Below are positions 7,956-34,669 of a stretch of 35,286 bases of DNA, in pieces (the stretch's first letter is position 1; each line of letters starts with the position of its first letter). The notes under the pieces were generated by a model, which did no database searches, had not been told where the DNA came from, and was given only the letters and a program-made list of their open reading frames with translations. The position numbers and the translations under genes are program-made. This stretch comes from a virus (taxonomy: Duplodnaviria; Heunggongvirae; Uroviricota; Caudoviricetes), in IMG/VR virus record IMGVR_UViG_2606217105_000003, positions 1-35,286 of that record; one strand, written 5' to 3'.

Positions 7956-8337
7956 CGCAGAGAAAAATGAAATTAAATCCACATCCGCCAGCACCAGAAA
8001 ACATCTTTATGATTTTTATGTTGCCTATAACCAGTGGTTAAAAAATGGTGCACCAGAAACAGAGGGTGAAATATTTGTTCAATATTCAGGATTATGTGCA
8101 AATGCTTGTCGTTATTTTGACGAAATCGGAGTGGATACCGAAGATATATTAGAACAATTACGTGCAGATTTTATCGCGAACGAGTTGGATGAATTATTAC
8201 CTTTCAATGAAAGTAGAGCGCACTATCATGAGGAATGCAGACTTGGCAGATGTCACCTGAATTCTGCTCGTGTGGCATGGGTCGAAAAACACTGCATTAA
8301 GGAGATGGGACATAATGAGCCGCACATCCCTGATTAA
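7948..8337 (+). CDS. Hypothetical protein, AT-rich (moron-like)
   Basis: 129 aa from ATG after GAGGT; visibly AT-rich relative to neighbours; no recognised family. Confidence 0.4.
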   Translation: MNNAEKNEIKSTSASTRKHLYDFYVAYNQWLKNGAPETEGEIFVQYSGLCANACRYFDEIGVDTEDILEQLRADFIANELDELLPFNESRAHYHEECRLGRCHLNSARVAWVEKHCIKEMGHNEPHIPD

Positions 8338-8866
8338 ATTAATTCATGTTGCCCGTCGGGAGTTGCAACTCGACGATGACACTTACCGAGCTTTTCTGGT
8401 GCAGTGCACGGGCAAAACCAGTTGCCGCGAGCTGTCCGTTGCACAACTGGAACAAGTGCTCGATGCCATGAAAAAGCGCGGTTTTAAGAAGCAGAAAAAA
8501 CATCCCCGCCGTCGCTTTAAGGGGCATGTCACACCACGCGAGAAGATTTACAAAATCTGGCAGCAGATGTTCCTTGATGGTTTCGTTTCCGATATCAGCG
8601 ACGCCGCGCTGGACAAATACGTTGAGCGCCTGACGGCCAGACGTAATGGCGGTCAGGGGGTTTCCACACTGGCCTGGTGTCACGGGGAATCGTTGCAGGT
8701 TGTGCTCGAAACGCTCAAACAGTGGCATATGCGCTGCATCCGTGAAGCCTTTGCCCGACATGGTGTGCCTTTACCTGTGAGCGAAACCGGTCGGGAGCTG
8801 CGCGGCTATGATGCACTGACCAGTGCGTATGCCCGCGCACGAAACAGCGGGAGAATTGCTGTATGA
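8315..8866 (+). CDS. gemA: GemA-like regulatory protein (Mu gene 16 family)
   Basis: 183 aa from ATG after GGAGATGGGACATA; sits immediately before mor as gemA does in Mu. Confidence 0.65.
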   Translation: MSRTSLIKLIHVARRELQLDDDTYRAFLVQCTGKTSCRELSVAQLEQVLDAMKKRGFKKQKKHPRRRFKGHVTPREKIYKIWQQMFLDGFVSDISDAALDKYVERLTARRNGGQGVSTLAWCHGESLQVVLETLKQWHMRCIREAFARHGVPLPVSETGRELRGYDALTSAYARARNSGRIAV

Positions 8867-9273
8867 AACAGATGAAAGAGCAGGATTTATTCGAAGACTT
8901 CCGGGACGACACCGTTCTGGAATATCTTCACGATTATCAGGAAAAATATGTTTATCCGGCGCTACTTTCAGAGCTGAATGCTCTGTTGCGACAGGAACTG
9001 ATAAGGCTTGGGGTTAACCCGGTCTATTCCCTTGAGTTGGTAGTGGCGATTTGTAATCATATCGGTGGGATTCAGGTATATGTTCCTAAAGGGAAAATAC
9101 TGGAAAATCTTATCAGAGACATGCGCATCTGGCGTGATTTTGATGGGAAAAACGTAGCGGAACTGGTGCAGCGTTACAAAGTGACATACAAAACGGTATA
9201 TCAAGCTATCAAAAGAATGCGAAGGCTGGAGCGTGGAAAATATCAAATGCAACTGTTTAAGGATGAGTCATGA
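8863..9273 (+). CDS. mor: Mor/C-family transcriptional activator
   Basis: 136 aa; acidic N-terminus, conserved-looking core LELVVAICNHIGGIQVYVPKG and C-terminal HTH-like YKTVYQAIKRMRR; position after gemA. Confidence 0.6.
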   Translation: MKQMKEQDLFEDFRDDTVLEYLHDYQEKYVYPALLSELNALLRQELIRLGVNPVYSLELVVAICNHIGGIQVYVPKGKILENLIRDMRIWRDFDGKNVAELVQRYKVTYKTVYQAIKRMRRLERGKYQMQLFKDES

Positions 9274-9749
9274 AATACTTTCCTCTTATACTTTTACTGA
9301 GCGTATTTTGCGCTAATGCGGCAAAGTTGCCAGCTGAAGATGTCATCAAAAAACGTCTGACAGAAAAAGATTTCATTGCACTAAATAGCTGGATGCCTCT
9401 TAAGGGAGGCGATTCTATTAAGAACGGTGGAACTGAAACTGCTCACAGCAAATTCGGGGTATTTACGATCAATAATAAAGTCGTCAGCTCAAGGACGACT
9501 GTAAAGGATTTTGAAAACAATCCTTCAGGTGTGTTGTCTTCCTTTGTAGCATGCTCGCGGGTTGCAGAGTCAGCAATTGGTGAACTAACAGAGAAGCAGC
9601 AGAAACGAATTATTGACATGGTAGTTTCAGCTACAAAAGTTGAAGGGTATGGGTTAACTGACGTGATACAGGGTTTTCTCATGCAAACCAAATTTCTCAA
9701 GATGGGTAACGATATGGTAATAGATTGCTCCATCAAAGGAGATGAGTAG
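9270..9749 (+). CDS. Predicted secreted/periplasmic protein of unknown function (moron)
   Basis: 159 aa; N-terminal signal peptide MKYFPLILLLSVFCANA; AT-rich; followed by its own intrinsic terminator. Confidence 0.55.
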   Translation: MKYFPLILLLSVFCANAAKLPAEDVIKKRLTEKDFIALNSWMPLKGGDSIKNGGTETAHSKFGVFTINNKVVSSRTTVKDFENNPSGVLSSFVACSRVAESAIGELTEKQQKRIIDMVVSATKVEGYGLTDVIQGFLMQTKFLKMGNDMVIDCSIKGDE

Positions 9750-9770
9750 TTATCTTCCCTTAATTCAATG

Positions 9771-9795
9771 AAGCCGGTAAATCCGGCTTTTTTTG
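9771..9795 (+). terminator. Rho-independent terminator (stem AAGCCGG/CCGGCTT followed by a T-run)
   Basis: AAGCCGGTAAATCCGGCTTTTTTT directly after the secreted-protein gene. Confidence 0.7.
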
Positions 9796-9849
9796 TGCCT
9801 CCGGCACTATGAAGCAGACCACGTTTAACTCTGCTTCACAGGTGCTTTT

Positions 9850-10437
9850 ATGGAAAATCAAAAATTCTCTCCGGCCTTTGAACATGCGCTGAATTTTATT
9901 CTGCGTCCTGATATCGAAGGCGTCTATGTCAATGACCCCACAGACCGTGGCGGCGAAACCAAATACGGCATTTCTGACCGCCGCGACGGTGTGATTGACG
10001 GCAAAACCGATGTCAACGGCGATGGTAAACCCGACACCCGCATTAAGGATTTAACCCGCGAACAGGTTGCGCAGATTTACTGGCGCGATTACTGGCTGCC
10101 TGCCGGATGTGACCAGTGGCCTGATGGCGTGGCGATGTTTGTGTTCGATGCGGCGGTTCAGCATGGCGTTAAAAAAGCTATCAAAATTTTGCAGGAAGCC
10201 ACTGATGTGGATGCTGACGGCATCATCGGCCCGCGTACCCGTAAGGCCGTGAGCCTGTCCACCCCGGACTGGTTGCTGACCCGCTGCATTGTCCGTCGTT
10301 CCCGCTTTTATGCCGAAATCATCAAATCCAAACCCGCCCAGGGCAAATACCTGAATGGCTGGTTTAACCGCATGGAAAAACTGACCGACGCCTGTCTGGA
10401 AATCATCGACAACGCGCCGTCCACCACGCGGGGGTGA
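9850..10437 (+). CDS. Endolysin, GH108-type muramidase with C-terminal peptidoglycan-binding domain
   Basis: 195 aa; N-terminal FEHALNFILRPDIEGVYVNDPTDRGGETKYGIS is typical of the GH108 family; C-terminal DADGIIGPRTRKAV is PG-binding-like. Confidence 0.75.
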   Translation: MENQKFSPAFEHALNFILRPDIEGVYVNDPTDRGGETKYGISDRRDGVIDGKTDVNGDGKPDTRIKDLTREQVAQIYWRDYWLPAGCDQWPDGVAMFVFDAAVQHGVKKAIKILQEATDVDADGIIGPRTRKAVSLSTPDWLLTRCIVRRSRFYAEIIKSKPAQGKYLNGWFNRMEKLTDACLEIIDNAPSTTRG

Positions 10438-10438
10438 C

Positions 10439-10690
10439 ATGGGCAAAGGCTGGGACGCCTCCCTGAAAGCCGGGCGGCGTGACCGCCTGCGTCAGGAGGT
10501 TTTACACCGCATGGCCGGAGGCCCGCCTCCGAAACCGCTGGACTATACCGGCCATGACGGCACACACGCCAGCTACTACATGCGTGGCTGGAACTCCGTG
10601 GATACACGGGACATTTTCTGGCAGTGCCAGAAGTACAGGGAAAAATTCAATGTGGAAAAAGGTAATGAACAAAATTTTAAAACTGTGTGA
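10439..10690 (+). CDS. Hypothetical protein in the lysis region
   Basis: 83 aa; ATG coupled to the endolysin stop (GTGACATGG). Confidence 0.4.
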   Translation: MGKGWDASLKAGRRDRLRQEVLHRMAGGPPPKPLDYTGHDGTHASYYMRGWNSVDTRDIFWQCQKYREKFNVEKGNEQNFKTV

Positions 10691-11075
10691 CTGGCTGCTT
10701 TGTTCCCGACTGATGAGAACCCCATGGCCGCTGGCCGGACTGACACTCTGCATGTTCATCATCAGCATGTTATGTGGCTGGCGATCGTTCGTGTTGATGT
10801 TGTTGTCCTTTGCCGGGGTGGTGTTGTTTTCATACAGCGCAAGCCTCGGGAATGTGCCATTTCGCCTGCTGCCTGAGGTCCGTTACCGGGCTTTTGGTCG
10901 CCACATCATCGTGTGGTCATGGGTGGTCTGGGCGCTGGGATATTTCTGCTGCGTCTTCAGCACGCTGATGATGATGTCACCGGTGCATCCGGTGTTCTGG
11001 CTGTGTGGTGGTTGTTGCGGCGGTCTGCTCTGTCTTCAGCGTTATCTGTATGGAGGTTTCCCGTGGATCCGTTAA
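10650..11075 (+). CDS. Predicted membrane protein, Cys-rich, several TM helices
   Basis: 141 aa from internal ATG (track ORF 10479..11075 likely over-extended); overlaps the previous ORF in another frame. Confidence 0.4.
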   Translation: MWKKVMNKILKLCDWLLCSRLMRTPWPLAGLTLCMFIISMLCGWRSFVLMLLSFAGVVLFSYSASLGNVPFRLLPEVRYRAFGRHIIVWSWVVWALGYFCCVFSTLMMMSPVHPVFWLCGGCCGGLLCLQRYLYGGFPWIR

Positions 11076-11671
11076 CCCTTTCAGGCATCGCCTCTGTTCT
11101 GCTGAAAGCCGGGCCGGGGCTGATTCGTTCCGTCGGGCGCTGGTTTGGTGGCAGCACATCTGCCGCTGCTGACTCGGTGGCCGGTATGGTGGAAAGCGTC
11201 CGGGAAAGCCTGCCGGTGGCTGAACAGCAACGCATTCTGGAACAAAAACTGGTGATGCTGTCACCGGAGCAACTGATGCAGCTGGAAACCCTGAAAGTTC
11301 AGCTGCAACAGCTGGAGGTGGAACGGCAGAAGCTGGTGCTGGCTGACCAGCAGGCCGCACACCACGAACAGCAGGAAACCATCCGCAATGGTGACAACGC
11401 CACGGACAGCTATGTGCGCCAGACACGCCCGCTGCTGGCCCGCCTTTCCTGTTACAGCAGTCTGGCCTATGTGCTGTTGCTCTCCTGCGGCCAGATTGCC
11501 GGAGCCATTGCCGGTGCCAGAGGTATCACGCTGCATATGCCATCACCGGACTGGGATATCACGCTGATGTTGCTTACCCCGGCGCTGGGCTATCTCGGTG
11601 TAAGAACCCTTGACGGCTTTGCCCGTTACAGCAAATCAAGCCGTCACAAAATGTCTGCGGGGCTGAAATGA
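11063..11671 (+). CDS. Putative holin-like membrane protein (3TM holin type)
   Basis: About 202 aa if started at GTG 11063 (GGAGG 6 nt upstream); central coiled-coil and C-terminal hydrophobic segments. Start uncertain; ATG at about 11191 is an alternative. Confidence 0.4.
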   Translation: MDPLTLSGIASVLLKAGPGLIRSVGRWFGGSTSAAADSVAGMVESVRESLPVAEQQRILEQKLVMLSPEQLMQLETLKVQLQQLEVERQKLVLADQQAAHHEQQETIRNGDNATDSYVRQTRPLLARLSCYSSLAYVLLLSCGQIAGAIAGARGITLHMPSPDWDITLMLLTPALGYLGVRTLDGFARYSKSSRHKMSAGLK

Positions 11672-11895
11672 CCGACGAAATCGATCGCATCAGTGAAGTG
11701 GTTCTGAACGAGCGTCAGAGCGTCGTTAAAGCCTGGCAAACACGGACAAAAGAAACGCCCCACAGCCGGGGCTTCTGCAATGACTGCGGGAACGTTATTC
11801 CGGCACAGCGCCTTGCGGCGCTGCCGGATGTGGTGACCTGTATTGACTGTCAGCAGATGCGGGAACGCAGGAGGAAAACGTGTCCTGGGAAATGA
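11668..11895 (+). CDS. TraR/DksA-family C4 zinc-finger protein
   Basis: 75 aa; CNDCGNVIP...CIDCQ four-cysteine motif. Confidence 0.7.
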   Translation: MTDEIDRISEVVLNERQSVVKAWQTRTKETPHSRGFCNDCGNVIPAQRLAALPDVVTCIDCQQMRERRRKTCPGK

Positions 11896-12185
11896 TCAGA
11901 GCCAACTGGCCCATTCTGTGGGCATTGCTGATGACAGGAATAAACCTGCTTCAGCTGATTCTGGCGAAAACCTACGTCAAACGTGAAGAGTTTGATTCAC
12001 TCCGTTCCCGCGTGTCGGTGATGGAAAGCCAGGTACACCATTTACCCGACCGTGATGAGTTCCACCGCCTGCAACTGGATATCAGCAATCTGCGGGGAGA
12101 AATCAAAGAACTGGGGCCATCCATCCGCCAGGTATCCCGCATCAGCGATTTGTTATTAGAGAACGAGTTAAAGGAAAAAAATTAA
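11880..12185 (+). CDS. Membrane-anchored coiled-coil protein (possible lysis accessory)
   Basis: 101 aa; GTG start with GGAGGA RBS; N-terminal TM helix WPILWALLMTGINLLQLILA followed by coiled-coil. Confidence 0.45.
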   Translation: MSWEMIRANWPILWALLMTGINLLQLILAKTYVKREEFDSLRSRVSVMESQVHHLPDRDEFHRLQLDISNLRGEIKELGPSIRQVSRISDLLLENELKEKN

Positions 12186-12478
12186 TGGCGATGAAAGAGA
12201 TCCTCACTGAAGACCGTCGTCTTGTGTTGCTGCGTTCCCTGCTGGACTGTGGCGACAGCGCGAATGAATCCGTGTTGCAGACCTGCCTTCAGGCTTACGG
12301 TCATAAGGTATCCCGTGATGTGGTGCGCACTCAGCTTGCATGGCTTCGCGAGCAGGGGCTGGTTCGTCTGTCTGATGTGGGCGGCTGTTACGTGGCTGAA
12401 ATCACCGGCAGCGGCGAGGATGTGGCAAACGGCCTGTCCAGCGTTCCGGGCGTTAAAAAACCCCGTGCGAGGGACTGA
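12185..12478 (+). CDS. Hypothetical protein
   Basis: 97 aa; ATG overlaps the upstream stop. Confidence 0.45.
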   Translation: MAMKEILTEDRRLVLLRSLLDCGDSANESVLQTCLQAYGHKVSRDVVRTQLAWLREQGLVRLSDVGGCYVAEITGSGEDVANGLSSVPGVKKPRARD

Positions 12479-12480
12479 GC

Positions 12481-12768
12481 ATGGCCCGAAAACTGAAGCC
12501 GTTAAGTCGCGGAGAACGGGCCGTCGTGCGGCAACTGGCGTACTGCCTTGTGCTGGCAGATATTGAGCAAAACGCCATTGTCCGTGCATACGAAAAACAG
12601 ACAGGAAAGCCCTGGAACCCGGATGCACCGGATACCCCCATGAAACGCGCCCTGCGATCATCACCGGCATGTGCGCGGCTGTGGAAGCTGTTAAGTAAGG
12701 ATATTCAGTCCGTTCGTGAAGAAATATACGCCGGTCTGAAAACGCAGAGGTCTGAAGATGGAAAATGA
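12481..12768 (+). CDS. Hypothetical protein
   Basis: 95 aa; tightly packed before the terminase small subunit. Confidence 0.45.
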   Translation: MARKLKPLSRGERAVVRQLAYCLVLADIEQNAIVRAYEKQTGKPWNPDAPDTPMKRALRSSPACARLWKLLSKDIQSVREEIYAGLKTQRSEDGK

Positions 12769-13339
12769 ACAACGCCCCACCCGTGGCCGTCTTTCCAAAG
12801 TGGATTTACTCCCGGACAGCATCCGGGAGCAGTTACATCAGATGCTGCGGGAAAAGCGGCACACGCAGGAAGAAATCCGCGAAGCCATCAACGCCCTGAT
12901 TGACGAACACAACCTGCCGGAAGAGATGCAGTTAAGCCGGACGGGCTTAAACCGCTATGCCAGCCGTATGGAAAAAGTCGGGGCCAAAATCCGCGCCTCC
13001 CGCGAGATGGCCGAGGTCTGGGCGGCAAAGCTGGGTTCCGCGCCGACGTCAGACGTCGGCAAGCTGCTGATGGAGTTTGTAAAAACGCTGGCCTTTGAAA
13101 CGTCCATGTCGATGGCAGAAGACGACAAGCCCGTTGCACCGAAGGCGCTGGGCCAACTGGCGCTGGTTGCCCAGCGTCTGGAAGCGGCCGCCATGACCAG
13201 CCATAAACGCGAGAAAGCGATCCGCGATGCGTTTGCGCAGGAGATGGCAGAAAAAACCGAAGAGCTGGTCAGAACGGGCGGTCTGTCAGGCGGTGCGGCT
13301 GACACCATCAAACGGGACATTCTGGGGATTAGCGCATGA
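12758..13339 (+). CDS. Terminase small subunit (Mu gp27-like)
   Basis: 193 aa; position immediately upstream of the large terminase; helical, charged sequence typical of Mu-like small terminases. Confidence 0.6.
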   Translation: MENEQRPTRGRLSKVDLLPDSIREQLHQMLREKRHTQEEIREAINALIDEHNLPEEMQLSRTGLNRYASRMEKVGAKIRASREMAEVWAAKLGSAPTSDVGKLLMEFVKTLAFETSMSMAEDDKPVAPKALGQLALVAQRLEAAAMTSHKREKAIRDAFAQEMAEKTEELVRTGGLSGGAADTIKRDILGISA

Positions 13340-14871
13340 CACAGATGAACACGTTCAGTGAATCCGATGTTCTGCTGCCGTATCAGAAACGCTGGGTTGC
13401 GGATGATTCAAAACTGAAAATCGCCGAGAAATCCCGCCGTACCGGTTTAACCTGGGCAGAAGCGGCAGATGCGGCACTGACCGCATCACTGAAGAAGGAA
13501 AACGGCGGGAGCGATCACTTTTATATCGGTTCGAATAAGGAGATGGCCCGCGAATTTATCGACGCCGTGGCGATGTGGGCGAAAGCGTTTAATGCGGCAG
13601 CAGAAGAAATCCGCGAGGAAGTGATCACCGACGAAGACAAGGACATTCTGACGTTCGTCGTGTACTTCGCCAGCGGATTTAAGGTCAAGGCGCTGTCCAG
13701 TAATCCGGGCAACATTCGCGGGATGCAGGGGAATGTCACTATCGACGAAGCGGCGTTTCATGAACAACTGGATGAGGTACTCAAGGCGGTCACACCACTG
13801 ACCACGTGGGGCGGTAAGGTTCGCCTTATCTCTACCCATGACGGCGTGGACAACCCGTTTAACCAGCTGATTCAGGAAAGCCGCGCAGGCAAAAAAGATT
13901 ACCGTATTCACACCATCACGCTGGATGATGCCTGCAATGACGGGCTGTACCGGCGTATCTGTCAGGTGCGCGGCATGGTGTGGTCACCAGAGGCCGAGGC
14001 GGAATGGAAAGAAGGTCTGCTGAGAAATACCGCCACCCGCGAAGACGCCCTGGAGGAATACTACTGCGTCCCGAAAAACGGCGGCGGCACGTATATCCCC
14101 CGCTCACTGCGTGAACGTGCGGCCCGTGGCACCGGAAAAGTGTTGCGTTTTACCGGTACACCGGAATTTAACGCACTGACGGAAAGCCAGCGCCGGGCAG
14201 ATATCCGGGAATGGCTGGAAACGGTGGTGCGTCCCGAGCTGGAAAAACTCCCGAAGAACCTGCGCCACTGTCTGGGGGAAGACTTTGCGCGTTCGGGTGA
14301 CCTGACCGTACTGGCCCCGGTGACGGTGAACGATGACACCACCCGCGAGGTGCCGTTCCTGGTTGAGCTTGGCAATGTGCCGTTTAAACAGCAGGAGCAG
14401 GTGCTGTTCTGGCTTTGCGATCGTCTGCCCCGCCGTGACGGCATCAAAATGGATGCGCGGGGGAATGGTCAGTATCTGGCAGAACAGGCGGCAGAGCGGT
14501 ACGGCGATGAAGTGGAACAGGTGATGCTGTCCGTGGCGTTTTACCGCGAAAACATGCCCCGTTTCCGTGCGGCGTTTGAAGATGATGAGCTGATCCTTCC
14601 GAAGCATGAAGACGTGATCAATGACCTCGGGGCCATTCAGTTACTGCGTGGCGTTCCCGGCATTGATGATTCACGAACCAAAGGCAGCGACGGTCACAAA
14701 CGTCACGGCGACGCCGCTGTGGCCATTTTCCTGGGCTTCCTTGCCAGCAAGGATGACTGCCACCGTTACGAGCTGCACCGCCTGAACCGCCCGGCGAAAC
14801 CGGAAGAAGGCAACACGCGCCGCCAGATGAAACTGACACGCGGCCTGAAAAATGAGGGAGGTTTACTGTGA
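13336..14871 (+). CDS. Terminase large subunit (Mu gp28-like)
   Basis: 511 aa; size and position before the portal. Confidence 0.75.
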   Translation: MTQMNTFSESDVLLPYQKRWVADDSKLKIAEKSRRTGLTWAEAADAALTASLKKENGGSDHFYIGSNKEMAREFIDAVAMWAKAFNAAAEEIREEVITDEDKDILTFVVYFASGFKVKALSSNPGNIRGMQGNVTIDEAAFHEQLDEVLKAVTPLTTWGGKVRLISTHDGVDNPFNQLIQESRAGKKDYRIHTITLDDACNDGLYRRICQVRGMVWSPEAEAEWKEGLLRNTATREDALEEYYCVPKNGGGTYIPRSLRERAARGTGKVLRFTGTPEFNALTESQRRADIREWLETVVRPELEKLPKNLRHCLGEDFARSGDLTVLAPVTVNDDTTREVPFLVELGNVPFKQQEQVLFWLCDRLPRRDGIKMDARGNGQYLAEQAAERYGDEVEQVMLSVAFYRENMPRFRAAFEDDELILPKHEDVINDLGAIQLLRGVPGIDDSRTKGSDGHKRHGDAAVAIFLGFLASKDDCHRYELHRLNRPAKPEEGNTRRQMKLTRGLKNEGGLL

Positions 14872-16439
14872 ACCTGAAACAACAGACCGGGGATGTTCGT
14901 CATTTGCTGAACCCGACAACCGGCGAGGGCGACACCCTGAAAAAAGAGACGCTCAATGAAGCACAGGCCCGCCCGCGTCAGGCTGGCGTACGTTCGGCCT
15001 CGCCGGGCATCAGCATTGCTTCCGGGCTGAATCCCGGCAGGCTGGCAGGCATTCTGCGCAATGCCGCCGACGGCATCACGCGTGATTTTTTTATCCTTGC
15101 CGAAGAGATGGAAGAACGTGATTTGCATTACGCCTCGGTGCTGCGCACCCGCAAGCTGACGGTGGCGGGTATCGAACCGGTGGTGGTGGCCGCCAGTGAT
15201 GACGATGCTGACGTGCAACTGGCGGACGCCATCCGTGCACTGATGGAAGCCCCGCAAATCCCCGAACTGATGTTTGATTTGCTCGACGGGCTGGGAAAAG
15301 GCGTGGCGGTCTGTGAAATCCTCTGGAATACCCACAAAAACCACTGGATTCCCCGTGATTATGAGTGGGTTGATCCCCGTTTTCTGAAAGCCGAAAAAAC
15401 CACGCTGCGCCAGTTCCGCCTGCTGACTGACGATGAACCGGTGGATGGCGTACCGCTGACACCGGGAAAATTCATTGTTCACCAGCCGCGCCTGAAATCC
15501 GGTCTGCCGCTGCGTAACGGTCTGGCCCGTCTGGTGGCGGTGATGTACATGCTGAAATCCTTTACCGTGCGCGACTGGTGGGCATTTGCGGAAAAGTTCG
15601 GCATTCCGGTTACAGTGGGGAAATACGGCCCCAACGCCACGGAGGAGCAAATCCGCGTGCTGATTGATGCGATTGCTTCCATTGCCTCGGATGCCGGGTG
15701 TGCCATTCCGCAGTCCATGCAACTGGAAATGAAGGAAACCGCCAGCCGGAATAACGGCGGCGCACTGTTCCGTGAAATGGCGGAATGGTGCGATGCGCAA
15801 ATCAGTAAAGCCGTACTGGGGCAGACCATGACCACAGATAACGGCAGTTCGCGTTCACAGGCGGACGTGCACAATCAGGTGCGCATGGACATTGTGCGCT
15901 GGGACGCGCGACAGCTGGCTAACACGCTGAATGAATATCTGGTGCGTCCCTACATCGAGGCCAACTACGGGCCACAGGCGCACTATCCCCGTGTTGTTCT
16001 GCGTATCAGTGAAGCCGAAGATCTGAAGGCGCTGACTGATGCTCTGGTGCCACTGATTGACCGGGGGATGCGGGTTCAGGAATCGGAGCTGCGGGATCGG
16101 TTCGGCCTGGCGGAACCGGACGAAGGGGCTGATGTTCTGCATCCGGTTTCTGCCGGAATGTCAGGTGAAATGGCGATGAACCGCGAGCGCGTCGCCCTGA
16201 ACCGGGAACACCCCGACGAACTGGCACAGATGGTGGATGATGCCCTGCGTGACTGGCAGAAAACCGGCGAGGCGTTCACAAACCCGGTGCTGACACTGGC
16301 GCAGGAATGCGACAGTTTTGATGACTTTCTGAAACGTCTGCCTGAGCTTCAGGAAACGCTGAACGCGGACGACTTTGCCCTGCAACTGGCGGAGGTGTGC
16401 TTTAAGGCGCGTGCGCTGGGGGACACCGGCCATGCGTGA
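14868..16439 (+). CDS. Portal protein (Mu gp29 family)
   Basis: 523 aa; follows the terminase; overlapping start and stop. Confidence 0.75.
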   Translation: MNLKQQTGDVRHLLNPTTGEGDTLKKETLNEAQARPRQAGVRSASPGISIASGLNPGRLAGILRNAADGITRDFFILAEEMEERDLHYASVLRTRKLTVAGIEPVVVAASDDDADVQLADAIRALMEAPQIPELMFDLLDGLGKGVAVCEILWNTHKNHWIPRDYEWVDPRFLKAEKTTLRQFRLLTDDEPVDGVPLTPGKFIVHQPRLKSGLPLRNGLARLVAVMYMLKSFTVRDWWAFAEKFGIPVTVGKYGPNATEEQIRVLIDAIASIASDAGCAIPQSMQLEMKETASRNNGGALFREMAEWCDAQISKAVLGQTMTTDNGSSRSQADVHNQVRMDIVRWDARQLANTLNEYLVRPYIEANYGPQAHYPRVVLRISEAEDLKALTDALVPLIDRGMRVQESELRDRFGLAEPDEGADVLHPVSAGMSGEMAMNRERVALNREHPDELAQMVDDALRDWQKTGEAFTNPVLTLAQECDSFDDFLKRLPELQETLNADDFALQLAEVCFKARALGDTGHA

Positions 16440-17220
16440 AACCCTCATCCCGAAAGAGGCGCTGGCGTGGCTGAAGGCGAAGAAGCTGCGCCCCGGTTTT
16501 GATTACCGGGATGTGTGGCGGGAAGAACACCGGAACAGCTTCACCGTGGCAAAAATGCTGCAACTGGATTTGTTGTCGGATGTGAAAGCCCTTGTGGAAG
16601 ACGCCCTGCAAAGCGGACAGACGTTCAGCGAGTTCCGGGAGGTGCTGCAACCGCTGCTGATAAAACGCGGATGGTGGGGCGTACAGGAGATGGATGATCC
16701 GCTGACGGGCGAAACCCGCACCGTGCAACTGGGCAGCGACCGCCGCCTCCGCACGATTTTTGATACCAACATGCGCACCGCCCGCGCGGCGGGCCAGTGG
16801 GAACGCATCCAGCGGACAAAGCGGGCCATGCCGTATCTGATTTACGAGCTGGGACCATCCCGCGAGCACCGGGCGGAGCATGTGAAATGGGCACGTCTGT
16901 GTCTGCCGGTTGATCATCCGTTCTGGCTGACACATTTCGCCCCTAACGGCTGGGGCTGCAAATGCACCATCCGTCAGGTCAGCCGTGGTGAATATGCGCA
17001 ACTGGCGGCACAGGGCACCATTCACACCGAAGCGCCGGAAATCAGAACTGTCCGCTGGGTGAACAAACGCACGGGCGAAGAGGAAGATGTGCCGGAAGGG
17101 ATTGATCCGGGCTGGAACTACAATCCCGGTATAAACCGTGAGCAGGAGCTGGCGCGCCAGCTGGCGACAAAACAGGCCCGTTTTGACAGTGAGCACCCCT
17201 CCCGCCGTAAATCCCCCTGA
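16432..17220 (+). CDS. Head morphogenesis protein (Mu F-like, gp30 family)
   Basis: 262 aa from ATG overlapping the portal stop; position after the portal. Confidence 0.65.
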   Translation: MRETLIPKEALAWLKAKKLRPGFDYRDVWREEHRNSFTVAKMLQLDLLSDVKALVEDALQSGQTFSEFREVLQPLLIKRGWWGVQEMDDPLTGETRTVQLGSDRRLRTIFDTNMRTARAAGQWERIQRTKRAMPYLIYELGPSREHRAEHVKWARLCLPVDHPFWLTHFAPNGWGCKCTIRQVSRGEYAQLAAQGTIHTEAPEIRTVRWVNKRTGEEEDVPEGIDPGWNYNPGINREQELARQLATKQARFDSEHPSRRKSP

Positions 17221-17409
17221 AACGCATCAGAAACGCGTTTTTTATTCTGATGGCGTGAATGTGCATTCTGACGTTTTTGAAGATGCTGTGGCGTTTTTGA
17301 AGGGGTTTTGAAGGGGGTATTTCCCCGTTTTCAGTGAAGCCGGTAAATCCGGCTTTTTTTCTGCCTTCCGCATACTGACCGTCGGTAACCCCAAACGACG
17401 GAGACTGAC
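17221..17409. promoter_or_regulatory. Central intergenic region: terminators, direct repeats, putative late promoter
   Basis: AAACGCGTTTTTT after F; repeats CGTTTTTGAAG x2 and GTTTTGAAGG; GGGGGTATTTCCCC hairpin; second copy of AAGCCGGTAAATCCGGCTTTTTTT (about 17337-17360); conserved downstream box before gene I. Confidence 0.5.
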
Positions 17410-18372
17410 ATGCAACCGGAACTGCTGGCGCTGTGTTTTTCCCTGCCAGAACCCATCCCTGAGCTGACACCTGCTCAACTGCCGGAATGGCTTGAACTCG
17501 TCCCTGCGGGTGAGTTCACCGGGCGCGATGGCCGGACGTGGATTAACCGCAATCCGCATGAGGTGGTCACCCGCTCGTCCGACATCAAAATTCCGGTGGA
17601 CATTGAACACGCCACCGAAATTAAAGGGCAACGCGGTGATGAAGCCCCGGCGTATGGCTGGGTGGAAGAACTGCGCGTGACGGACAGCGGCACCATTGAA
17701 GGCCGTGTTGTCTGGAGCGAGTACGCCCGATGGATGCTGAGCGAACGCCGCTACCGCTATTACAGCCCGGCGTTTTTCTTTGACGCAGACGGTGTGGTGA
17801 CGCGCCTGTCCAGCGTCGGGCTGACCAACAAACCTAACCTGGACTTTCCTGCACTGAATACGGAGAAAAACCCGATGACAGTACCTGTGCAAATCACCGG
17901 CCTGCTTGGGCTGGCTGAATCCGCCACGGTGGACGATACCGTGGCCGCCATTAAACAACTTCAGGAGAACGAACAGGTGGCGCTGAACCGCGCACAGACA
18001 CCTGACCTGACGAAGTTTGTACCGGTGGAAACCCACAATCTGGCACTGAACCGTGCCGAAACCGCAGAACAACGCCTTCAGCAACTGGAAGAGAAGGAAG
18101 CAGAAGCGCTTGTGGATGCGGCCATCGAAGCCGGAAAAGTGGCCCCGGCAAACCGTGACATGTTCCTTGCCACCTGCCGCACGGAAGAAGGCCGCAAACA
18201 GTTTGCGGAGTACACCAAAGGTGCACAGCCGCTGGTGAACAACGACAAGCCCAGCCAGGGCAAGGATAAACCCGCGCAGACACTGACCGACGCCGAACTG
18301 GCGATGTGCCGCAGCATGGGTATTACCGGGGAAGAGTTCCTCGCCGCTAAACCTAAACAGGAGAATAACTGA
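17410..18372 (+). CDS. Head protease/scaffold protein (Mu I-like)
   Basis: 320 aa; precedes the major capsid gene. Confidence 0.7.
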   Translation: MQPELLALCFSLPEPIPELTPAQLPEWLELVPAGEFTGRDGRTWINRNPHEVVTRSSDIKIPVDIEHATEIKGQRGDEAPAYGWVEELRVTDSGTIEGRVVWSEYARWMLSERRYRYYSPAFFFDADGVVTRLSSVGLTNKPNLDFPALNTEKNPMTVPVQITGLLGLAESATVDDTVAAIKQLQENEQVALNRAQTPDLTKFVPVETHNLALNRAETAEQRLQQLEEKEAEALVDAAIEAGKVAPANRDMFLATCRTEEGRKQFAEYTKGAQPLVNNDKPSQGKDKPAQTLTDAELAMCRSMGITGEEFLAAKPKQENN

Positions 18373-19274
18373 TGGGAGCAGTCACTTCCGAAGTCCTTCA
18401 CGCGCTGACCACCTGTCTGAGCGCCGCTTATACCCGTGGTCTGAGTGGTGTCACCCCACAATGGCAGCGCATCGCCTCTGAAATCCCGAGTTCGTCCGCC
18501 TCCAATACCTACGGCTGGATGAAAGATTTACCGGAGATTAAGGAATGGGTCAGCGCCCGTCAGATGGCAACGCTGGACGGTTATGGTTACACCCTTGCGA
18601 ACAAAACCTGGGAAAGTTCGATCCGCGTTAAACGCGAACACATTGAAGACGATCAGATTGGTCAGTACAGCATTATCGCTGAACGCTATGGCCGCCAGAC
18701 ATCGGAGTTCCCGGACAAGCTGTGTTACCCCCTGCTGTGTGCCGGGTTTAACACCCTGTGTTTTGACGGTCAGAACTTCTTTGATGAAGACCACCCGCTG
18801 GGCGACGGCACCTGCAGCAACGTTGTCGGCACCCCGGCATCAGACCAGGGAGAACCGTGGTTCCTGATTGATGATTCTCAGGTACTGAAACCCATCATCT
18901 GGCAGACGCGACGCGCCTTTAAGTTTGAAGCCCTGGATGATCTGAACAGCGAGCACACCTTCAAGAATAACGAGTTCCTTTACGGGGTGGACGGTCGCTG
19001 CAATGCGGGCTTCGGCTTCTGGCAGACCGCCGTCGGTTCCCGTGCGGCACTGACAGCGGAGAACTACGAGAAGGCCAGCAATCTGCTGCTGGGTATGAAG
19101 ACCACCAACGGTGAACCGCTGGGCATCCGCCCGGCCACCCTTGTGGTGGGGCCGAAAAACCGCGCGGCTGCGAAGCGCATCATTGACGCCATGCTGGTAA
19201 ACGGCGGCGATTCCAACATCTGGTACAAGGATGTGGATATCGTGGTCAGTCCGTTCATCACCACCCCGGCATAA
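18372..19274 (+). CDS. Major capsid protein (Mu T-like)
   Basis: 300 aa; position after I; followed by a strong palindromic hairpin. Confidence 0.75.
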   Translation: MGAVTSEVLHALTTCLSAAYTRGLSGVTPQWQRIASEIPSSSASNTYGWMKDLPEIKEWVSARQMATLDGYGYTLANKTWESSIRVKREHIEDDQIGQYSIIAERYGRQTSEFPDKLCYPLLCAGFNTLCFDGQNFFDEDHPLGDGTCSNVVGTPASDQGEPWFLIDDSQVLKPIIWQTRRAFKFEALDDLNSEHTFKNNEFLYGVDGRCNAGFGFWQTAVGSRAALTAENYEKASNLLLGMKTTNGEPLGIRPATLVVGPKNRAAAKRIIDAMLVNGGDSNIWYKDVDIVVSPFITTPA

Positions 19275-19352
19275 CCCGTCATCCGTAATCTGTAACCCGC
19301 AGTTAAAAGGCGCTGTGAATGCCCTTTTAACTGCCTTTTAAAAGGCAGAGTC
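19275..19352 (+). terminator. Hairpin-rich region after the major capsid gene
   Basis: Perfect palindrome CTGCCTTTTAAAAGGCAG plus an adjacent imperfect hairpin. Confidence 0.45.
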
Positions 19353-23655: not shown

Positions 23656-23741
23656 CCTGTCTCAGCGATTCAGTATTCAGTACCTGGAACAGCTGCCCCT
23701 GCGGCAGCTGTTCCGCCTGATAAAGCAACTGGAGAAACAGC

Positions 23742-27933: not shown

Positions 27934-28460
27934 ACGCTATTGCCCGCCGTCTGCGGCTGCTGGTTGACCGTGCCGTTGTCCGCATGGTGTCTGACAGTCT
28001 GGAGCGGCAGAACCTGCAAATCCAGACGCTGGCAGATGCCACTGATGACGATGTGGAACGCTTCCAGAATTACGGGTTTACTTCCGTTCCGCCGGAAGGT
28101 TCAGAAGCTATTGTGCTGGCCGTTGGCGGACGGCGTGATGGTCTGGTTGCCATTGCGGTGGAAGACAAGCGATGTCGCCCTAAAGGCCTGTCCCCCGGCG
28201 ACGTCCGGCTGTATCACCGGGACGGAAAATCACACATCACCCTGAAGGAAAACGGCGTCATTCAAATCACAGGAGAACAATTAAACGTTTCAGGGAAAAC
28301 GGTAAATCTCACCGCCGACGAATTGCTGAATATTATCGGTAAACAAATGAAATTCGTCGGTCCCTGTGAATTTACTGAAGATGTCAGAATCAACGGTAAA
28401 TCATTCATCGAACACATTCATAAGGACGGCGACAATGAGAATACATCACCGCCCGTATGA
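27924..28460 (+). CDS. Baseplate spike/assembly protein (gpV-like, Mu Q/gp45 family)
   Basis: 178 aa; position and size. Confidence 0.65.
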   Translation: MGLNAIARRLRLLVDRAVVRMVSDSLERQNLQIQTLADATDDDVERFQNYGFTSVPPEGSEAIVLAVGGRRDGLVAIAVEDKRCRPKGLSPGDVRLYHRDGKSHITLKENGVIQITGEQLNVSGKTVNLTADELLNIIGKQMKFVGPCEFTEDVRINGKSFIEHIHKDGDNENTSPPV

Positions 28461-33664: not shown

Positions 33665-33828
33665 AGCAATTCAGCATGAAAAGTGGATGTGGAGCGTACT
33701 TATAAATAATCATTTTGTATAGTTTATGACGATCGATAGCATCATATCGATCGTCGGTTTGCATCAGTTGTGATTAAATACCCCCAGCCCTCCGGGCGGT
33801 CATGTCTGGTTATTACACAGGGGGAATC
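33665..33828. promoter_or_regulatory. mom operon control region with GATC-containing inverted repeat
   Basis: 11-bp perfect inverted repeat GACGATCGATA-N6-TATCGATCGTC (about 33728-33755) carrying two GATC sites, upstream of com; in Mu, Pmom is controlled by Dam methylation/OxyR and activated by C. Confidence 0.5.
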
Positions 33829-34014
33829 ATGGACTCTGTTCGCTGTAAAAACTGCAATAAATTACTGTTTAAAGGAGGTTTTAAGCATATAGAAATTAAA
33901 TGCCCTCGCTGTAAACGTTACATTGTCATATCGAATGCCAAAGAGCATCCCACGGAGCTGTATTGTGGGAAAAGAGAAGAAATCACGCGTTCTGACAAAA
34001 CCCTGCGTTATTGA
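33829..34014 (+). CDS. com: Com, zinc-finger translational activator of mom
   Basis: 61 aa from internal ATG ([14 protein letters not shown]...CPRCKR...) with C4 zinc finger; track ORF 33802..34014 extends upstream. Confidence 0.8.
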
Positions 34015-34669
34015 GTATGAAGGCCGGATTGTCGGCTATGGTTCAAAGGAGCTACGTGTTGAAACCATATCCTGCTGGCTGGCCCGCACAATCATTCAGA
34101 CAAAACACTATTCCCGCCGTTTTGTGAATAACTCCTACCTGCATCTTGGCGTATTCAGCGGACGTGATCTGGTTGGCGTTCTTCAGTGGGGATATGCCCT
34201 TAACCCCAACTCAGGGCGTCGGGTCGTGCCTGGAACGGATAACCGGGGCTATATGGAACTGAACCGCATGTGGCTACACGACGACATGCCCCGCAACTCT
34301 GAGTCACGGGCCATCAGCTACGCGCTGAAAACCATCAGGTTATTGTATCCGTCAGTGGAGTGGGTTCAGTCCTTTGCAGACGAACGCTGCGGACGCGCAG
34401 GCGTTGTATATCAGGCGTCGAATTTTGATTTTATTGGTAGCCATGAAAGCACGTTCTACGAGCTGGACGGCGAGTGGTATCACGAAATAGCGATGAACGC
34501 GATTAAGCGCGGAGGGCAACGAGGCGAGTATTTGCGGGCTAATAAGGAGCGGGCCGTGGTACACAAATTTAATCAGTATCGCTACATCAGGTTCCTGAAC
34601 AAGCGTGCAAAAAAGCGCCTAAACACCAAGCTATTCAGGATTCAGCCATACCCCAAAAACACATCTTGA
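33935..34669 (+). CDS. mom: Mom, DNA modification (adenine carbamoylmethylation) anti-restriction protein
   Basis: Frame overlaps com; sequence ...[25 protein letters not shown]... matches Mu Mom as recalled. True start uncertain: ATG at 33935 or GTG at about 33965 with GGAG upstream; track ORF begins at TTG 33923. Confidence 0.8.

Follow-up and report, generated by a model that had tools for sequence, protein, structure and literature searches.

A duplicated intergenic element in a Mu-like prophage of Escherichia coli resembles the Mu middle promoter Pm joined to an intrinsic terminator

A duplicated module in a Mu-like prophage

The DNA analyzed here, which we call the window, is the complete 35,286-nucleotide (nt) stretch of the IMG/VR virus record IMGVR_UViG_2606217105_000003, a Mu-like prophage of Escherichia coli, and the element under study is a short intergenic module that occurs in it twice. 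The first copy (hereafter, pre-lys) lies between an early operon, which ends with the gene for a Mor-family transcriptional activator and a 159-aa open reading frame (ORF), and the gene for a GH108 endolysin. The second copy (pre-I) lies between a gene similar to Mu F and the gene for a Mu I-type protease (Table 1). Prophages in 52 of 5426 complete E. coli genomes match the part of the window from 9000 to 18500, which carries both copies, at 95-97% identity (97% in strain UMNF18).

Positions 9769-9794 and 17335-17360 of the window are exactly identical, forming a 26-nt core, TGAAGCCGGTAAATCCGGCTTTTTTT, beyond which the two copies diverge quickly; over 52 nt (9755-9806 and 17321-17372), the identity is 85%, and no other two-copy direct repeat in the window is as long. 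The cores are followed, in the same register, by the similar boxes TGCCTCCGGCACTATGA (9796-9812) and TGCCTTCCGCATACTGA (17362-17378). When up to three mismatches are allowed, a 25-mer matches the window at these two sites only, with 0.00 matches expected from 100 dinucleotide-preserving shuffles. The initial annotation, which placed a duplicated module followed by a similar box at about 9771-9815 and about 17337-17380, is thus borne out by the alignment of the copies. A third full copy was found neither with the 25-mer nor with a position weight matrix, although the matrix, built from the sites of relatives with Mu excluded, yielded one weaker, box-only match in the window, at 28291-28309.

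Both copies fold into a hairpin with an 8-bp stem and a 5-nt loop followed by seven T, the arms being GAAGCCGG and CCGGCUUU around the loop TAAAT, with U7 in the transcript. The folding energy of the pre-lys hairpin is -13.3 kcal/mol (z -3.3) and that of the pre-I hairpin is -12.6 to -12.8 kcal/mol, with z between -2.8 and -3.3 over both copies. A G+C-rich stem-loop, a U-tract and an upstream stop codon on the same strand are present in each case: the pre-lys hairpin starts 20 nt past the stop codon of the 159-aa ORF at 9749, and the pre-I hairpin 115 nt past the stop codon of the F-like gene at 17220. In a terminator scan of positions 8000-19000, the two copies were among the top three intrinsic-terminator-like sites. 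By sequence and fold, each core has the form of a textbook intrinsic terminator and would act as one. The sole Rfam match, to sroD at 17273-17361, is sub-threshold (22 bits vs the gathering score of 50, E 0.87), and we took it to be a chance match to the terminator hairpin.

Homology to the Mu middle promoter

A search of all fetched loci for the loop-centered core GGTWAATCC turned up a match in Mu itself, AAAGCCGGTTAATCCGGCTTTTTTT at Mu 9176-9200, directly 3' of mor. A cloning primer designated "Mu Pm nt9163 F" has the sequence ttctgtaaacagtaaagccggttaatccggc (PMC9239132), and the wild-type bases of Mu Pm from -57 to -52 are given as GTAAAC (Table 3 of PMC4390567). The latter fixes the Mu numbering, so that the published Mor-binding dyad, which spans -51 to -36, is centered at -43.5 and consists of two 5-bp inverted repeats around a G/C-rich hexamer, corresponds to AGTAA-AGCCGG-TTAAT. 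The published Mor footprint on Mu Pm extends from -56 to -33, and the -10 hexamer of Mu Pm, TATCCT, lies 22 nt past the box. The Mu hairpin was reportedly described by Stoddard and Howe as the terminator of the early transcript (t9.2).

Both window copies align with Mu Pm without gaps, and 25 of 28 positions are identical over the Mor box, hairpin and T-run. In this alignment, the Mor box comprises the three bases 5' of the hairpin, its left arm and its loop, and the T-run becomes the promoter spacer. Both copies have a 16-bp imperfect dyad, a 22-nt distance from box to hexamer and a Mor gene encoded upstream, and both lack a -35 element; a consensus scan of positions 8000-19000 found 0 sigma-70 consensus promoters. 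The matrix, when run on Mu, gave Mu Pm as the sole strong match (score 30.3, the next being 14.0). The symmetric hairpin dyad (AAGCCGG N5 CCGGCTT, centered at about -37) was also considered as the activator site and rejected, given that the published dyad lies 5.5 bp further upstream and that conservation at pre-I is asymmetric.

The two copies differ in their relationship to the Mu promoters. The pre-lys copy follows mor and has in its operon a homologue of E18, with which the middle operon of Mu begins, and is therefore the positional counterpart of Mu Pm, not of Plys. Downstream of the T-run, the pre-I copy contains CCTTCCGCATACTGAC and a stem homologous to CCTCCCGCAAACTGAC and the stem of Mu PI, such that a Pm-type upstream half combined with a PI-type -10 region and leader makes this copy a putative promoter mosaic. 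The initial annotation noted that both copies precede genes driven by late promoters in Mu, Plys and PI. The endolysin and I genes do lie downstream, but only the downstream half of the pre-I copy has a PI homologue.

Conservation in relatives

Relatives were collected by terminase similarity, without regard to the motif (80 loci from GTDB genomes and 80 from IMG/VR), and the regions upstream of the endolysin gene and of gene I were extracted, yielding 45 unique pre-lys and 39 unique pre-I sequences; the INPHARED phage collection contains just 3-4 distant relatives of these regions. The box is present at both sites in every member of the enterobacterial clade, in which TerL is 69-99% and other proteins are 60-70% identical. 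All 84 unique sites have, 22-23 nt past the box, a hexamer whose second base is A and whose sixth is T, with spacers of varying sequence.

Upstream of the endolysin gene, the hairpin and at least six T are intact in 44 of the 45 unique sequences. Such near-invariance, like the canonical hairpin and seven T of both window copies, would be expected if the copies were intrinsic terminators only, with lys and I transcribed by read-through or from other promoters and the likeness to Pm a relic. The pre-I regions make this explanation improbable. There, the hairpin and T-run are kept in only 12 of the 39 unique sequences, the T-run is broken in 5 and the right arm is lost in 22, so that terminator features are gone in 27, whereas the box and the 22-23-nt spacing persist in all 39. 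Counting from the G of GAAGCCGG as x1, the pre-I box positions x -3, -2, 1-3, 6-9 and 11-15 are 90-100% conserved, compared to 56-64% for the right arm of the hairpin (x16-18), the block of conservation matching the extent of the published Mor footprint (-56 to -33). The most conserved elements are the loop, TWAAT, and positions x -3, -2 and 1-3, whereas a terminator constrains only the complementarity of the stem. Furthermore, the consensus scan of 8000-19000 offered no other promoter candidate for lys or I. Retention of the box and its spacing alongside decay of the pre-I terminator argues for selection on an activator site, not only on a terminator: a conserved loop and stem flank, a fixed distance to the -10 hexamer and a right arm that can be lost are expected of a promoter but not of a terminator. 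At the pre-lys site, which follows the early operon, both putative functions are kept.

In more distant relatives, the element changes. The pre-I regions of Vibrio/Enterovibrio loci (L008-L011, L256) contain a different hairpin followed by T9, GCAACCGACG-TTATTTCT-CGTCGGTTGC, the core of which, GACGTTATTTCT, is kept without a hairpin in L032. The pre-lys regions of Marinomonas-like loci (L032, L254, L255) retain GGTTAATCC, likewise without a hairpin. This suggests that distant relatives use the same design, an activator box inside a terminator, with another specificity.

IMG/VR contains at least 123 occurrences of the exact 22-mer. Among the 123 listed sites, 87 have a Mor gene upstream and a GH108 endolysin gene downstream, 21 an F-like gene upstream and I downstream, and 13 Mor upstream and E18 downstream, the Mu-like arrangement; the other 2 follow a Mor gene, with no recognized gene downstream. 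Among the complete E. coli genomes, the element is present in 54 of 5426, at a median of 2 places each, and neither these genomes nor the IMG/VR matches include an occurrence outside Mu-like phages. An element that is rare, typically occurs twice per genome and is confined to Mu-like contexts, in 54 genomes compared to the 52 with the prophage stretch, is not a host-wide repeat (REP/BIME-like) or a mobile miniature element. About 1% of complete E. coli genomes carry a prophage of this group, members of which also occur in Klebsiella, Raoultella, Kluyvera and Pluralibacter.

A further explanation would make the pre-I copy a recent, functionless duplication of the pre-lys module, or a product of gene conversion from it, as might be gathered from the 26 identical nt, the rapid divergence outside them and the tendency of copies within one genome to resemble each other. 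This is very unlikely given that the pre-I box is present in all sampled enterobacterial relatives, including lineages in which it has diverged from pre-lys. In addition, some genomes (e.g. L239) combine one site with TTAAT and one with TAAAT, so that conversion does not keep the copies identical, and the element is confined to Mu-like promoter contexts. The suggestion of the initial annotation that a small repeat had been spread by recombination is, for the same reasons, not supported: both sites are occupied at 60-70% protein identity, and the pre-I box outlives the terminator.

The activator and the predicted circuit

The Mor protein encoded in the window shares 59% identity with Mu Mor (E 5e-56), compared to 32% with Mu C. 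A tblastn search of the window with Mu Mor and Mu C found no second Mor/C homologue, Mu C matching the Mor gene only. Similarly, in the relatives, picked by terminase similarity alone, each of the 94 loci with a match encodes one Mor/C protein. In Mu, Mor is strictly specific for Pm and C for the late promoters. The consensus of the C box is TTAT-N5-6-ATAA (PMC12867686), a sequence that occurs in neither copy. The missing C gene and missing C box rule out a C-type promoter and, with a Mor gene present and the two proteins promoter-specific in Mu, indicate that both modules belong to the Mor (Mu Pm) type and not to the C type. Of the proposal in the initial annotation, a terminator fused to a Mor/C-dependent promoter, the fusion and Mor are supported by the terminator fold and the 25/28 match to Mu Pm, and C drops out.

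An activator other than Mor, be it the 159-aa protein, the TraR/DksA-type protein of the lys operon or a C-like factor from a gene elsewhere, is similarly hard to credit, even though Mu uses C for lys and I and the downstream half of the pre-I copy is PI-homologous, because the box is the Mor box of Pm and not a C box, no C homologue exists in the window or the 94 relatives, most relatives with both modules lack the 159-aa ORF (which lies before 5 of the 123 sites), and Mor and C do not exchange promoters in Mu.

With a rough probability of 0.8, then, we consider each copy to be a compact terminator-promoter unit of the Mu Pm type. The hairpin and U7 would stop transcription arriving from upstream, at 9770-9794 that of the early operon ending in mor and the 159-aa ORF, and at 17336-17360 that of the lysis/packaging/portal operon ending in the F-like gene. 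Mor would bind the box in the DNA of the left arm and loop of the hairpin, around -43.5, and the host sigma-70 RNA polymerase would start at about 9818 and about 17384 only with Mor bound, restarting transcription about 24 nt past the terminator; the weak -10 hexamers and the absence of a -35 element are what lead us to propose this dependence. Mor made from the early operon would then switch on the lysis and head operons directly. The most likely arrangement is accordingly a two-tier cascade, from the early operon through Mor to the lysis and head operons, as opposed to the three tiers of Mu. Mor binding, Mor dependence and the start sites are transferred from Mu in this scheme.

Several points weigh against this assignment. 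The whole case for it is homology to Mu. The arms of the box are less symmetric than those of Mu, at 3/5 positions for AGTGA/TAAAT vs 4/5. At pre-I, a terminator immediately before the restart would seem superfluous, and it is missing from many relatives. Gene conversion could also account for the perfect identity of the 26 nt. Finally, according to the Mu literature, middle transcription also requires DNA replication, so that Mor may not suffice.

Two other observations concern the proteins encoded near the modules. The C-terminus of the window Mor (9240-9273) reads ...KYQMQLFKDES, and a DLF motif is also present near its N-terminus. The C protein of Mu carries a C-terminal clamp-binding motif, QPDLF (PMC12867686), which QMQLF of the window Mor resembles, whereas Mu Mor lacks the motif (QPSLL). 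Such a tail would be consistent with a Mor that has assumed the late-activator role. The gene for the TraR/DksA-type protein lies inside the operon of the pre-lys module, and its product might modulate RNA polymerase late in infection.

Leader helices

In T4, the genes e, soc and 49 and that of I-TevI have an inhibitory leader helix with its 5' strand upstream of the late transcription start, and are translated only from transcripts made from the late promoter (PMC3014915). Per-sequence folds revealed an inverted repeat in every pre-lys and pre-I leader of the clade as well as in those of Mu Pm and Mu PI. These repeats start within the -10 hexamer or shortly past it, at x39-48 (x39-44 in most cases), and end beside or over the Shine-Dalgarno sequence or start codon, their stem sequences varying by lineage. 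In the leader of Mu Pm, a promoter with a mapped start, the pairing is between CUGUGAUGA, at -9 to -1, and UCAUCAUGG, over the start codon of E18; the Mu helices are located at 1215-1250 (Pm) and 10022-10053 (PI) of the Mu locus L081. An equivalent of the window pre-I stem, the 5' arm of which is at or upstream of the predicted start, was found in 17 of 17 unique pre-I leaders and in Mu PI.

In the pre-lys leaders, an outer helix is added, in which the spacer/-10 region (x27-39) pairs with the ribosome-binding region through lineage-specific partners such as AUGCCUGC/GCAGGCAU, GGCAC/GUGCC and CCGGAA/UUCCGG. The window leader folds with -21 kcal/mol when started at x26 and with about -4 when started at 9818, and across the clade the pre-lys leaders reach about -21 kcal/mol with the 5' strand compared to about -5 from the predicted +1. 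In a co-variation test on 12 pre-lys lineages, native combinations of 5' and 3' strands gave -21.1 kcal/mol vs -13.8 for chimeras, and in 7 of the 12 no chimera was as good as the native pair, which supports co-variation at this site. The same test did not discriminate at pre-I, where the stems are alike across lineages, and RNAalifold found no consensus structure in the leaders, which we attribute to stems in different registers and to a MAFFT alignment that is not structural.

With the 5' strand upstream of the predicted start, the helix would form only in read-through RNA. Regions 9767-9849 and 17333-17409 may, tentatively, be viewed as three-layer insulators, combining a terminator, a Mor-dependent restart and a leader helix confined to read-through RNA, such that only Mor-initiated RNA would give rise to endolysin and head proteins; we regard this extension of the model as possible but rather doubtful. 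If it holds, the leader-helix layer would explain the conserved "TGCC..." box of the initial annotation. We know of no description of gene e-type translation logic for Mu-like phages.

Other features of the window

The weaker matrix match noted above is a candidate for a third Mor promoter and might correspond to Mu PP. Its box scores 18.4, compared to a maximum of 11.3 in 50 shuffles, and the hexamer TATTAT follows 23 nt past it, at 28331-28336. The box is kept in relatives down to about 62% protein identity and is absent at the equivalent place in Mu; it lacks CC at x14-15. Identity at third codon positions over the box is 78%, compared to 53% gene-wide, and some other 5-codon stretches reach 83-87%. 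The box also encodes a conserved G-K-T/S-V-N motif, which is a confounder.

No Mor box was detected by the weight matrix at the com-mom operon (33829-34669). The region upstream of it, 33690-33835, is homologous to the mom regulatory region of Mu, and the two share a GATC cluster, GACGATCGA...ATCGATCG (33729-33755), which in Mu is the Dam/OxyR control site. The C box of Mu mom, TTATGCCCCAATAA, is replaced by TTGTGATTAAATAC in the window.

None of the 80 GTDB relatives has a homologue of the 159-aa ORF, which resembles an accessory (moron-like) gene; given its place between mor and the terminator, co-expression with the early operon would be expected. The intergenic region between the F-like gene and I contains three phased copies of CGTTTTTGAAG / GGTTTTGAAG (17270-17313), and the corresponding gap of Mu, between G and I, carries an annotated strong gyrase site and phased T-tracts (ATTTTTAAA). 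Two late intergenic gaps contain other hairpins, namely CAGTTAAAAGG...CCTTTTAACTG 3' of the major head gene (in the region 19296-19345) and a perfect 12-bp stem, GGAACAGCTGCC...GGCAGCTGTTCC, without a T-run, before the tape-measure gene (23690-23718).

Table 1. Genes, predicted regulatory elements and leader structures in the window
Feature	Positions	Strand	Remarks
GemA homologue	8270-8866		Directly before the Mor gene
Mor-family activator gene, 136 aa	8863-9273	+	Pfam Mor 3.9e-29; PHROG "late transcriptional activator"
159-aa ORF	9270-9749		Last of early operon; no Pfam family; PHROG 38744 only
Putative pre-lys Mor box AATGA-AGCCGG-TAAAT	9767-9782	+	13/16 vs Mu Pm dyad AGTAAAGCCGGTTAAT; matrix score 34.3, the best in the window
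Predicted pre-lys intrinsic terminator	9770-9794	+	Stem 9770-9777/9783-9790, loop TAAAT, T-run 9788-9794
Putative pre-lys -10 hexamer CACTAT	9805-9810	+	22 nt past box; in register with Mu Pm TATCCT
Predicted pre-lys leader helix	9805-9844	+	Inner stem 9810-9818/9830-9838; outer CACU 9805-9808 with Shine-Dalgarno GGUG 9841-9844
Predicted Mor-dependent transcription start, pre-lys	9818 (+/-2 nt)	+	Mu Pm +1 transferred via ungapped alignment
GH108 endolysin	9850-10437		After a 100-nt gap carrying the pre-lys module
Homologue of Mu E18	10439-10690		In operon downstream of the pre-lys module
TraR/DksA-type C4 zinc-finger protein	11668-11895		Pfam match 7e-11
Large terminase and portal genes			Between the E18 homologue and the F-like gene
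Mu F-like protein gene	16375-17220		Before a 189-nt gap carrying the pre-I module
Putative pre-I Mor box AGTGA-AGCCGG-TAAAT	17333-17348	+	14/16 vs Mu Pm dyad; matrix score 33.6
Predicted pre-I intrinsic terminator	17336-17360	+	Identical to the pre-lys terminator
Putative pre-I -10 hexamer CATACT	17371-17376	+	22 nt past box; homologous to CAAACT of Mu PI
Predicted pre-I leader stem CCGTCG/CGACGG	17379-17401	+	3' arm overlaps Shine-Dalgarno GGAG 17400-17403
Predicted head-operon transcription start, pre-I	17384 (+/-2 nt)	+	From Mu Pm register
Mu I-type protease	17410-18372		Major head protein T next
Candidate third Mor box AGGGAAAACGGTAAAT	28292-28307	+	In gp45-like baseplate gene, about 150 nt before gp46-like gene; no hairpin

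Comparison with known systems

The element belongs to a well-characterized kind, and the understanding of how Mor-type promoters work is unchanged. What appears to be new is the use of this promoter type at two late operons and the Pm/PI mosaic at gene I, and possibly also the gene e-like leaders. The predicted arrangement provides a testable map of the timing of lysis and particle assembly in a common enterobacterial group of Mu-like prophages, and ARKGAARSCGGTWAATCC with a -10 hexamer 20-21 nt on can serve as an annotation motif for putative Mor-dependent promoters in these prophages. The natural mosaic, in which a PI core goes with a C box in Mu and with a Mor box here, informs the rewiring of activator specificity.

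The putative leaders would resemble those of the T4 gene e type in that read-through RNA hides the ribosome-binding region and promoter-started RNA does not. They differ in promoter type and phage family, in that the arrangement and the start sites are predicted here, and in that several lineages cover the Shine-Dalgarno sequence only in part.

With Plys and PI of Mu, the window modules share the location before the endolysin gene and gene I, and an activator site in place of -35; in addition, Mu Plys has a T6 stretch in its spacer, and the core and stem of Mu PI have homologues in the pre-I copy, as noted above. Unlike Mu, the window has neither a C gene nor a C box, its endolysin is of the GH108 and not the Mu gp22 type, and the terminator and activator site are fused, whereas the terminator after C in Mu is a separate hairpin upstream of Plys.

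Mu Pm is the closest counterpart, sharing with the window modules, besides the 25/28 sequence match, the 5-bp arms around AGCCGG, the 22-nt spacing, the lack of -35 and a cognate Mor encoded upstream, as well as, for pre-lys, the position after mor and the E18 homologue in the driven operon. The half-sites differ (AGTGA/TAAAT in the window, AGTAA/TTAAT in Mu), as do the hexamers. The main differences, however, are that the module occurs twice in the window and that its copies precede endolysin and head/tail genes, whereas Mu Pm precedes the short middle operon that encodes C.

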